NCBI RefSeq assembly: GCF_045037415.1
Contig: NZ_CP173438.1
DNA from: Escherichia coli
GTDB lineage: Bacteria > Pseudomonadota > Gammaproteobacteria > Enterobacterales > Enterobacteriaceae
Direction: 5' to 3' (one strand)
Length of the DNA: 64,000 nt
The notes below the pieces were generated by a model. That model had not been told where the DNA came from and did no database searches. It saw only the letters and a list, made by a program, of their open reading frames with translations. Position 1 is the stretch's first letter. Every line of letters begins with the position of its first letter. The position numbers and the translations under genes were made by a program. This document shows positions 1 to 35,660 of this stretch, in pieces.

Positions 1-50
1 ATCTGCCGTTTTTTGGCGCTTTTGCCCTGCTGACTTTTGAGGAAATCCAC

Positions 51-11175: not shown

Positions 11176-11934
11176 ATGAGCCTGATCCTCACGCTCACCG
11201 GCACTGGCGGCGCACAGGGCGTTCCCGCATGGGGCTGTGAGTGCGCGGCCTGCGCCAGAGCGCGGCGCTCACCGCAGTATCGCCGCCAGCCATGCAGCGG
11301 CGTCGTGAAGTTTAACGACGCGATCACCCTGATCGACGCCGGGCTGCACGATCTCGCCGATCGCTGGTCGCCCGGATCGTTCCAGCAGTTTTTGCTGACG
11401 CACTACCATATGGATCACGTGCAGGGGCTGTTTCCGCTGCGCTGGGGCGTGGGCGACACAATCCCGGTCTACGGTCCACCGGATGAGCAGGGCTGCGACG
11501 ATCTGTTTAAACATCCGGGCCTGCTTGATTTCAGCCACACGGTGGAGCCGTTTGTGGTGTTTGATTTGCAGGGGTTGCAGGTCACGCCGCTGCCGCTTAA
11601 CCATTCGAAACTCACTTTCGGCTATTTACTGGAAACGGCGCACAGCCGGGTGGCGTGGCTATCTGACACCGCAGGCCTGCCGGAAAAAACGCTGAAATTT
11701 TTACGCAATAATCAGCCGCAGGTAATGGTGATTGATTGCAGCCACCCGCCGCGCGAGGATGCACCGCGTAATCACTGTGATTTAAATACCGTGCTTGCGC
11801 TGAATCAGGTTATCCGCTCGCCACGGGTGATTCTGACCCATATCAGCCACCAGTTTGATGCGTGGCTGATGGAAAATGCACTGCCGTCGGGGTTTGAGGC
11901 GGGGTTTGATGGGATGGAGATTGAGGTGGAGTGA
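11176..11934 (+). CDS. phnP: PhnP, phosphoribosyl 1,2-cyclic phosphate phosphodiesterase, metallo-beta-lactamase fold (252 aa)
   Basis: HYHMDH metal-binding motif; last gene of the phn operon. Confidence 0.92.
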
Positions 11935-11961: not shown

Positions 11962-12318
11962 TCAACGCCCATACTCATCTTCCATTCTCCGCTCTTCATC
12001 TTCCAGTTGCTGACGCTCCTGATCAAGCTGGCGCTGGCGTTCGTCCAGCTGCCTGCGGCGATCTTCAAACTGGCGGCGGCGGTCATCATATTGTCTGCGC
12101 CGATCGTCGCTCACTTCACGCTGCCAGCCGTCGTCGCGCGAATCTTCATAGTCTCGCCCACGGTCAGGGTTATAAGCGTCGTTAATCGCCTGCTGAATAT
12201 TGCCAATGGTGTCATCGATAATATCGGCCTGGGCCGGAACGGTGAACAGCGTGAACAGCGTGAACAGCGTGAACAGCGTGAACAGCGTGAATAAAAGAAA
12301 TAGCGGAAAGCGTTTCAT
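11962..12318 (-). CDS. yjdP: YjdP-like small secreted charged protein with expanded LFT-repeat signal peptide (118 aa)
   Basis: MKRFPLFLLFTLFTLFTLFTLFTLFTVPAQA signal peptide, then D/R/Q/E-rich low-complexity region; convergent with phnP. Confidence 0.8.
   Translation of the reverse strand: MKRFPLFLLFTLFTLFTLFTLFTLFTVPAQADIIDDTIGNIQQAINDAYNPDRGRDYEDSRDDGWQREVSDDRRRQYDDRRRQFEDRRRQLDERQRQLDQERQQLEDEERRMEDEYGR
12242..12291. repeat. Tandem 9-bp repeat (GTGAACAGC x5 plus partial copy) inside the yjdP signal-peptide coding region
   Basis: Five exact head-to-tail copies read directly from the sequence; each unit encodes LFT on the minus strand. Confidence 0.95.
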
Positions 12319-12386
12319 TAGCCAACCTCAAAAAGAAACTCTATCCACATTAGTCATTACTCATCCATGCAAGTAGTGGATGAATC

Positions 12387-12836
12387 TCAATTTCTCCGCT
12401 GCTCTATTGCCGTAATCGCCTCCACGCGTTGTTGATGACGACCGCCTTCGTACTGTGCGCCCAGCCACGCATCGACAATCATTTTTGCCAGTTCGAGGCC
12501 AACTACTCGTGAACCAAAAGCCAGCACGTTGGTGTCGTTATGCTGCCGCGAAAGTTGCGCGGAATAAGGTTCGCTACAAACGACCGCGCGAATTCCGGCA
12601 AACTTGTTCGCCGCTATCGAAATACCGACGCCAGTGCCACAAATCAAAATCCCGCCATCAGCCTCTCCGCCAGCAACGGCCAGTGCGACTTGACTGGCGT
12701 AATGCGGATAATCAGTACGCTCTGACGACCAGGTTCCTTTATCAATCACTTCAACGCCACGCTCAACTAAATGTGCCACTATTTCATGTTTTAAAATGAA
12801 ACCGACATGATCACAGCCAAATGCAATCTTTTTCAT
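12387..12836 (-). CDS. rpiB: RpiB, ribose-5-phosphate isomerase B / allose-6-phosphate isomerase (149 aa)
   Basis: MKKIAFGCDHVGFILKHEIVAHLVERGVEV... typical RpiB/LacAB fold. Confidence 0.93.
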   Translation of the reverse strand: MKKIAFGCDHVGFILKHEIVAHLVERGVEVIDKGTWSSERTDYPHYASQVALAVAGGEADGGILICGTGVGISIAANKFAGIRAVVCSEPYSAQLSRQHNDTNVLAFGSRVVGLELAKMIVDAWLGAQYEGGRHQQRVEAITAIEQRRN

Positions 12837-35215: not shown

Positions 35216-35660
35216 TAGGCGCAGCAAACGTCGCATCAGGCATTGATGTCGGATGCGGCGTAAACGCCTTATCCGACCTACAAAAATCACGCCAAATCAG
35301 GCTATTGCGCTGTCTGACGTAGGCCTGATAAGACACGTCAGCATCGCATCAGACATTGATGCCGGATGCGGCGTAAACGCCTTATCCGACCTACAAAAAT
35401 CACGCCAAATCAGGCTATTGCGCTGTCTGGCGTAGGCCTGATAAGACGCGGCAAGCGTCGCATCAGGCGTTGATGTCGGATGCGGCGTAAACGCCTTATC
35501 CGACCTACAAAAATCACGCCAAATCAGGCTATTGCGCTGTCTGGCGTAGGCCTGATAAGACGCGTTAAGCGTCGCATCAGGCGTTGATGTCGGATGCGGC
35601 GTAAACGCCTTATCCGACCTACAAAAATCACGCTACATCAGGCTATTACTCAGTCAGGCA
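35216..35660. repeat. BIME/REP cluster: four tandem copies of a 114-124 bp composite REP unit
   Basis: GGATGCGGCGTAAACGCCTTATCCGACCTAC recurs at 35240, 35364, 35478 and 35592, each followed by GTAGGCCTGATAAGAC...GCGTCGCATCAG. Confidence 0.9.

Follow-up and report, generated by a model that had tools for sequence, protein, structure and literature searches.

Among the described systems closest to the locus presented here, the E. coli MLVA VNTRs (GECM-7/-10, CVN001 to CVN017, CCR001) consist of short perfect units (39, 18, 15, 15, 18, 6, 6, 59, 6 and 6 bp) that change in whole steps, presumably by slipped-strand mispairing, and serve for the sub-typing of clones. In the opa genes of Neisseria, CTCTT pentamers lie in the region coding for the leader peptide, where gain or loss of a copy shifts the reading frame and causes phase variation. 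In humans, two in-frame hydrophobic indels in the h-region of a signal peptide, the 9-bp Leu-Ala-Leu indel that separates APOB SP-24 from SP-27 and the (CTG)n leucine repeat of CNDP1, are reported to alter secretion efficiency.

Here we describe an array of 9-bp units in yjdP of Escherichia coli, found in a stretch of 64,000 nucleotides (contig NZ_CP173438.1 of assembly GCF_045037415.1; hereafter, the window), which codes for the hydrophobic core of a signal peptide, is polymorphic in length, is restricted to one lineage (ST131) and has changed recurrently. With the MLVA loci it has in common short perfect units, change in whole steps presumably by slipped-strand mispairing, and usefulness for sub-typing a clone, but its unit is 9 bp, a length not found among theirs, its polymorphism is confined to ST131 and it is located in a signal-peptide coding region. 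When ten generic E. coli MLVA primer pairs were searched against the 64-kb window, none of the 20 primers matched at up to 3 mismatches. CVN014, which also has 5 or 6 repeats in ST131, was considered as a possible identity of the array and was ruled out, since its unit is 6 bp and its primers are absent. The likeness to Neisseria opa resides in a slippage-prone tandem repeat within DNA that encodes the hydrophobic core of a leader (signal) peptide; however, the 5-nt opa unit shifts the frame and switches expression on or off, whereas the 9-nt yjdP unit just lengthens or shortens the signal peptide. All yjdP alleles are in frame and the array lies within the coding sequence rather than in a promoter, and because its unit gives a length change only, we do not class it among contingency or phase-variation loci. 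The closest functional analogues are APOB, whose indel likewise measures 9 bp, and CNDP1, although these are eukaryotic ER signals that differ by 1-3 residues or units, whereas YjdP has a bacterial Sec signal with 3-12 units, adding 3 to 30 residues to a 22-aa signal peptide. A limited literature search returned neither a description of the repeat nor experimental data on cleavage and export of YjdP in the literature mentioning yjdP, and we provisionally regard the array as an unreported coding, in-frame VNTR.

The features of the locus in the window were as follows.

11962..12318, minus strand: yjdP coding sequence, 118 aa plus stop (ORF list; NCBIfam NF041443; RefSeq annotation).
12326..12329, minus strand: Shine-Dalgarno sequence GAGG, 7 nt upstream of the yjdP ATG (read from the sequence).
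12226..12318, minus strand: coding region of a predicted 31-aa Sec-type signal peptide (translation, PMC9360617 rules, homologues).
12242..12291, minus strand: perfect tandem array (GTGAACAGC)x5 + GTGAA (Tandem Repeats Finder, raw sequence, 3-12 copies in other genomes).
12036..12108, minus strand: imperfect 21-bp (7-aa) repeats, DDRRRQ[YFL], in the mature protein (Tandem Repeats Finder, period 21, 3.5 copies, 71% matches).

The translation of the window ORF reads MKRFPLFL(LFT)6VPAQA/DIIDD..., the slash marking the predicted cleavage site, and it matched NCBIfam NF041443 ('DDRRRQL repeat protein YjdP') with a score of 131.9 bits (cut-off 90; E = 8.3e-39). Every matching RefSeq genome names the gene yjdP, and homologues of YjdP carry a precomputed assignment to Pfam PF28054. 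A Pfam-A scan of the window protein, run with an installed library that possibly lacks PF28054, gave no significant match; its sub-threshold Pfam matches, as well as a weak NCBIfam match, of 25.5 bits where the cut-off is 110, to the flagellar collar protein FlbB, were put down to charged, probably helical low-complexity sequence. The gene is flanked by phnP (11176-11934, plus strand) and rpiB (12387-12836, minus strand), the same neighbours as in RefSeq records, and in EHEC genomes the neighbourhood corresponds to the OI167 island arrangement. YjdP is a small 'DDRRRQL repeat protein', highly charged and probably located in the periplasm. The heptad tract of its mature part is a second tract of yjdP with a variable number of units among lineages and species, the homologue lengths of 102, 109, 116 and 123 aa being whole heptads apart.

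In K-12, yjdP RNA rises ~9.5- to 10.6-fold upon treatment with a LolCDE inhibitor, alongside Rcs/Cpx-type envelope-stress genes (RNA-seq, PMC5105897), and the gene is listed in a data set on an acid-resistance regulator (PMC5217608). Because of this RNA induction, the strong Shine-Dalgarno sequence and the conservation of the ORF across genera, translation of yjdP is likely.

At 12242-12291 the raw sequence contains 5 exact GTGAACAGC units followed by GTGAA, and Tandem Repeats Finder reported the same interval with a period of 9, 5.6 copies, 100% matches, 0 indels and GTGAACAGC as consensus. Read on the coding (minus) strand, the array is TTCAC(GCTGTTCAC)5 and translates into the LFT repeats of the signal-peptide h-region. 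It was the sole perfect period-9 run of at least 14 bases in the 64-kb window, the Tandem Repeats Finder scan of the whole window revealed no further perfect short-unit array, and the chance expectation for 41-match period-9 runs at the base composition of the window is ~1.6e-20. In K-12 the DNA at this site is GTGGACAGC GTGAGCAGG GTGAA and YjdP has 109 aa, so that the window is exactly 27 nt, or three units, longer. The first-pass annotation had proposed five exact 9-bp copies plus a partial one, coding on the minus strand for (LFT)n in the YjdP signal peptide, in a protein of 118 aa against 109 aa in K-12 (about three units apart); the repeat finder and the raw sequence, the ORF translation and the K-12 sequence bore out each of these readings in turn.

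We then explored the tract beyond the window. A 452-nt yjdP region was matched in 5,404 of 5,426 complete E. coli genomes, with match spans that differ by multiples of 9. Expanded arrays were counted with a synthetic query of 14 units and 60-nt flanks at E <= 1e-36, which passes only near-perfect arrays of at least 3 units; such arrays had at least 3 units in 535 genomes and at least 4 units in 476. Allele counts had also been attempted from BLAST identity bands (long-flank 3-, 4-, 6- and 7-unit queries) and were discarded, as gaps of at least 36 nt split a match into two ~100%-identical pieces and confound the bands; these counts were replaced by E-value-gated queries. The length classes were distributed as follows.

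3 units: 61 genomes (full-length E-value-gated query).
4 units: 42 genomes (full-length E-value-gated query).
5 units: ~298 genomes (by subtraction).
6 units: 108 genomes (full-length E-value-gated query).
7 units: 18 genomes (ranked listing).
8 units: 4 genomes (ranked listing).
9 units: 1 genome (ranked listing).
10 units: 1 genome (ranked listing).
11 units: 3 genomes (ranked listing).
12 units: 1 genome (fetched sequence).

Summed over these classes, the expanded array was present in ~537 of the 5,426 complete genomes (~10%), and the allele of the window, 5 units, was the modal one. The ~298 five-unit genomes are consistent with the 301 records at 99% identity or more to the 452-nt query, minus split matches, and an evenly spaced sample of 60 rows contained 7, 5, 32, 12 and 4 rows with 3, 4, 5, 6 and at least 7 units, respectively. 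Of the records with 95-99% identity to the 452-nt query, about 48 fall outside the length classes; they probably represent close relatives within B2 whose alignment is split in two. Sequences fetched as representatives had 5 (the window), 6, 7 and 12 perfect units, while O157 and a B2 strain outside ST131 had the imperfect 2.6-unit form. Thus the length polymorphism that the first-pass annotation had predicted across E. coli genomes was found, with 3 to 12 units that differ by whole, in-frame 9-bp steps. A search for exact 2-11-unit YjdP proteins in a collection of 15 billion proteins returned none, though RefSeq has such proteins (e.g. WP_000819726.1).

The expanded array is a property of a single lineage. 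All carriers with a type in the record name were O25b:H4-ST131, the ST131 reference JJ1886 has 5 units, and every ST131-type genome found had at least 3 units; the assignment of carriers to ST131 was made from record names and identical flanks. In 11 of 11 ST131 loci of the non-divergent haplotype, with at least 2.9 kb fetched on each side, the 5.8-kb flank differed from that of the window by 0 or 1 SNP. Conversely, in all ~49 evenly spaced non-ST131 rows sampled from the ~4,870 remaining genomes the match span fits a tract shorter by 27 nt (one of them being off by a single base). The expandable perfect array is therefore confined to ST131, while the other E. coli sampled, K-12 included, keep the imperfect 2.6-unit form.

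Across the YjdP family the tract is invariant in length. The signal peptide had 22 aa in all representatives read that have an intact N-terminus, from E. coli lineages, Shigella, E. albertii, E. fergusonii and several Citrobacter, which indicates that the length of the tract has been fixed over genus-level divergence; it ends in VPAQA/DIIDD or a near variant (LPLRA/DIIDD in E. fergusonii). Clusters of homologues of 123-184 aa, considered as candidate giant LFT expansions, proved to result from frameshifts, read-through or wrong starts. Outside ST131 the tract peptide is either LFT-LLT-LST (K-12-type) or LFT-LFT-LST. The DNA of the non-ST131 B2 strain MS 57-2 reads GTGGACAGC GTGAACAGG GTGAA, and ST131 departs from it by a G-to-A change in the first unit that replaces TCC (Ser) by TTC (Phe) and turns LFT-LFT-LST into LFT-LFT-LFT; K-12-type genomes, with LFT-LLT-LST, are one step farther from ST131 than MS 57-2. 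Imperfect versions of the tract are stable (~49 sampled rows; related species), and the tract varies only where its DNA units are identical, a classic case of the purity threshold above which repeats become unstable.

Within ST131, two array sub-types were distinguished, one all-perfect, (GTGAACAGC)n, and the other (GTGAACAGC)n-1 followed by GTGAACAGG, the ancestral last unit, which is synonymous with GTGAACAGC (ACC versus ACG, both Thr). The sequences confirmed GTGAACAGG in 6 of 6 fetched records of the 'one-mismatch' E-value class. In 17 other loci the arrays were perfect except for this optional ancestral last unit, and all were in frame. The all-perfect sub-type spans lengths of 3-12 units and the GTGAACAGG-ended one has 3, 4, 5, 6, 7 and 11 units, with a mode of 5 units in both; these 16 alleles imply at least 15 mutational events. 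A divergent flank haplotype common to AREA_505 and Eco-15 (74 + 56 SNPs in 5.8 kb) likewise carries two lengths, 4 and 5 units.

The laboratory series Esc provided a finer comparison, as Esc29 has 5 units while Esc1, Esc3, Esc5, Esc6 and Esc7 have 6. The Esc chromosomes measure 5,156,506 to 5,156,542 bp, a spread of 36 bp, except that of Esc1, which is ~770 bp longer, and both Esc29 and Esc1 have 5,114 annotated features. Esc29 and Esc1 are also colinear, within 12 bp, at an offset of -1.5 Mb relative to the array, whereas the unrelated JJ1886 has aspC/ompF there and not ycbZ/matP, a displacement that presumably amounts to ~30 kb on the K-12 map; at +1 Mb, JJ1886 is colinear too, within 8 bp, so that this position is not discriminating. 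On the strength of chromosome sizes, feature counts and the colinearity at -1.5 Mb, Esc29 and Esc1/3/5/6/7 are probably isogenic and one unit apart. Many lengths per sub-type on identical 5.8-kb flanks, together with the probably isogenic Esc series, point to recurrent whole-unit change, the word 'recurrent' being based on the number of alleles, the flanks they share and a single pair of probably isogenic strains. In other clonal sets a single length prevails (7 units in NR319, NR341 and NR363; 4 in each of strains 1435-1438), and sets of clonal records in the database were mostly uniform; because such sets share one length, we consider the locus a moderately fast VNTR rather than one that scrambles in every culture.

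Since tandem repeats are known to cause assembly error, the copy numbers might be thought to be errors of long-read assembly. The differences are, however, all exact 9-bp multiples with perfect units, they recur in hundreds of independent assemblies, and clonal sets (NR319/341/363, strains 1435-1438, Esc1/3/5/6/7) agree internally. Moreover, the array spans 32-113 bp, so that the short and common alleles fit within one short read and all alleles within one long read. Given above all the exact multiples and the agreement of the clonal sets, an origin of these numbers in sequencing or assembly is so improbable as to be negligible.

These data lead us to consider the array, with a good deal of confidence, as an ST131-specific, in-frame, slippage-type VNTR in the hydrophobic core of a signal peptide, subject mostly to neutral or mildly deleterious drift. 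According to this account, the G-to-A (Ser to Phe) change turned GTGGACAGC into GTGAACAGC in the ancestor of ST131 and thereby produced near-identical adjacent 9-bp units; whole units were then gained and lost in the ST131 tract, giving 3 to 12 of them. Replication slippage is the most likely mechanism, the alternative being RecA-dependent unequal exchange or recombination. A 9-bp unit preserves the reading frame whatever its copy number, and the sole variable is how long the h-region is. YjdP would be a dispensable, stress-induced protein, and the variation of its array would reflect drift and not a regulated switch.

To appreciate the possible consequences for YjdP, the tripartite layout and the cleavage site of the signal peptide were read by eye against the rule set of PMC9360617. 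This gave an n-region M-K-R, an h-region FPLFL(LFT)6V of 24 aa and a c-region P-A-Q-A, with predicted cleavage after AQA. The n-region, residues 1-3, bears the positive charge expected of it, and the c-region, V-P-A-Q-A/D, carries Ala at both -1 and -3 and, as helix breaker, Pro at -4, the same in all alleles. The h-region is apolar, as it should be, but its 24 residues in the window (18-45 across other ST131 alleles) exceed the ~7-15 residues usual for h-regions of bacterial signal peptides. From 15 aa in the ancestral, family-wide form it grows to 18 aa in 3-unit alleles, 24 aa in the 5-unit allele of the window and 45 aa in the 12-unit allele. The best 19-aa hydrophobicity sum, a crude sum of approximate Hessa-scale values, changed from +4.9 kcal/mol in K-12 to +1.0 at 3 units and to -3.5 to -3.7 at 4 units or more. 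By this crude sum, alleles with at least 4 units would fall in the range of transmembrane helices, and for this reason the processing of YjdP is probably altered in them.

Signal-anchor sequences have longer h-regions than cleaved signal peptides (PMC2120157), and the h-region sets the position of the cleavage site for signal peptidase (PMC9360617). Alleles with at least 4 units resemble signal-anchor (type II) sequences in combining an N-terminal positive charge with an apolar stretch of at least 21 aa, and differ from them in that the YjdP alleles keep the VPAQA/D cleavage cassette intact. In bacteria, more hydrophobic signals go via SRP, and cleavage of long h-regions is sometimes still possible. 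We thus expect that h-regions of ~21 aa or more probably act like transmembrane helices and shift YjdP towards SRP-dependent, co-translational targeting, with cleavage by signal peptidase I slowed or abolished; a YjdP left tethered to the inner membrane would follow from this.

The copy number in ST131 might be under selection, tuning the location or dose of an envelope-stress-induced YjdP that, with a longer h-region, would be SRP-targeted, uncleaved and tethered to the inner membrane; the repeat number would then be a heritable, reversible dial on the location and dose of YjdP past an h-region of ~20 residues, with selection holding it near five units. Consistently with this proposal, no ST131-type genome found has fewer than 3 units, the mode is 5 in both sub-types, an ORF annotated as yjdP underlies every listed match (in tables without pseudogene flags), alleles with at least 4 units would reach the transmembrane-helix range in the crude calculation, and the gene is induced ~10-fold by the LolCDE inhibitor. 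However, a 9-bp unit never breaks the frame, so that intact ORFs are uninformative on selection, and a unimodal spread around a mode is also the outcome of stepwise neutral drift. Furthermore, yjdP is without a known phenotype, and the strict conservation of the 22-aa signal peptide across genera suggests that extra length is tolerated rather than useful. Altogether, a selected dial on YjdP seems to us unlikely, and so does the holding of the array near five units by selection.

Alternatively, 5 units or more might disable the signal peptide because export jams, cleavage fails or the protein is degraded, which would mean that YjdP has been silently lost in ST131 and that the tract drifts unselected. 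Its h-regions of 24-45 aa, far beyond both the ~7-15 aa usual for signal peptides and the family-wide 15 aa, speak in favour of such a loss, as does the association of long h-regions with uncleaved signal-anchors (PMC2120157). On the other hand, the mature part was 100% identical in the ST131 loci examined and 0 stops or frameshifts occurred in 17 sequenced loci, and alleles of 3-4 units (18-21 aa) would probably still be functional. The identity of the mature part is a weak point in this respect, because ST131 is too young for the expected decay. Even so, we judge inactivation improbable and retain mostly neutral or mildly deleterious drift of the tract as the preferred reading.

Finally, the array could act at the level of DNA or RNA rather than through the peptide, by way of mRNA structure, translation initiation, promoter spacing or an antisense ORF. 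It begins 27 nt past the start codon, in principle near enough to affect initiation, and antisense ORFs cross it. Nevertheless, the Shine-Dalgarno-to-AUG segment has a predicted unpaired probability that stays within 0.63-0.70 from 2 to 12 perfect units, showing no trend with copy number, and equals 0.55 in the ancestral imperfect form; an effect of mRNA structure on initiation was rejected on account of this flat accessibility. A consensus scan returned one promoter-like site, within the coding sequence, and 0 terminator-like sites, with no excess over shuffled sequence, which led us to reject a promoter or terminator role as well. The antisense ORFs, which encode VNS repeats and REQ repeats, are by-products of the repeat, and to our knowledge the CTG-TTC-ACG codons are not rare in E. 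coli. A function of the array outside the peptide is thus very improbable.

If neutral drift is all there is to it, the locus is an ordinary VNTR of some practical value. ST131 is a pandemic clone roughly a century old, and the array, which can be sized by PCR, is a candidate marker, previously unused, that splits it into at least 16 alleles. The array is also an example of the onset of a VNTR, in which one or two point substitutions purify a cryptic repeat that is frozen across genera and hypervariable in ST131. In addition, the alleles constitute a natural series of h-regions (15, 18, 21 ... 45 residues) with constant n- and c-regions and a constant mature protein, and can serve as a test set for SRP/SecB targeting and for signal-peptidase cleavage. 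The array misleads annotation too: for the 12-unit allele, PGAP placed the start at a CTG inside the repeat.

We compared the tandem array that encodes the LFT repeat of the YjdP signal peptide among closely related strains, and found five units in Esc29 versus six in Esc1, Esc3, Esc5, Esc6 and Esc7. The chromosomes of these strains agreed in size to 36 bp, save that of Esc1, which was about 770 bp longer, an excess that may be about the size of an IS1 element. Moreover, 1.5 Mb from the array, Esc29 and Esc1 were colinear to 12 bp (comparison loci L020/L021 and L022-L027; the ST131 reference strain JJ1886 was also compared). These strains look like a single laboratory-derived isogenic series, and thus the difference in the array looks like a one-unit change inside a clone. 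Strains 4/0 (NZ_CP023849.1), 4/1-1 (NZ_CP023844.1) and 2/0 (NZ_CP023853.1) carried four, six and five units, respectively, a variation that may represent within-host change. The names of the three resemble patient/time-point codes.

A subset of array carriers, AREA_505 (locus L009) and Eco-15 (locus L011), shared common and strongly divergent flanks, with 74 + 56 SNPs in 5.8 kb, located as follows:

Left flank, about 1.6-2.7 kb from the array, and right flank, about 1.4-2.9 kb from it: divergent stretches of AREA_505 and Eco-15

Protein accessions in this haplotype differed for phnM, phnN, alsB, alsA, alsC, alsE, alsK, yjcS, ytcA and mdtN, while the central phnO-phnP-yjdP-rpiB block was identical to that of the window. 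This arrangement resembles either a mosaic produced by recombination or a distinct clade within ST131. Beyond the 3-, 4-, 6- and 7-unit alleles, the 452-nt query from the window's yjdP region matched about 48 further E. coli genome records at 95-99% identity, which are probably close B2 relatives whose alignment was split in two pieces. In EHEC, represented by the O157:H7 strain ATCC 43888 (locus L006), a hybrid sensor kinase belonging to the OI167 island (lmvK/lmvR, PMC10128022) takes the place of the rpiB/als side of yjdP; the YjdP N-terminus (MKRHSTLFLF...) and upstream region were also unlike those of the window.

Array expansion also affected annotation. For the 12-unit allele of strain AREA_487 (NZ_CP123343.1; 328-660 of locus L001), PGAP called a 110-aa protein starting at a CTG within the repeat, leaving out the true ATG and its Shine-Dalgarno sequence, 87 nt upstream; the expansion thus led to an artefactual gene call. 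Exact look-up in a collection of 15 billion proteins returned no YjdP with 2-11 units, the window's own 118-aa protein (RefSeq WP_000819726.1) included, and no LFT expansion occurred among the YjdP cluster representatives examined there. Expanded forms may be present in this collection under other start sites, or may be absent from it altogether.

A second repeat lies in the mature protein:

12036-12108, minus strand, within yjdP: 21-bp (7-aa) DDRRRQ[YFL] repeats

The number of these units also varied across lineages and species. Homologues measured 102, 109, 116 (Citrobacter) and 123 aa (E. albertii), in steps of whole heptads, the 102-aa protein being a common E. coli form found on at least 1,000 contigs. 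Elsewhere, the window contained another repeat:

35220-35647: 114-bp unit, 3.8 copies, 93% identity

These copies resemble a cluster of intergenic repeats of the REP/BIME type.
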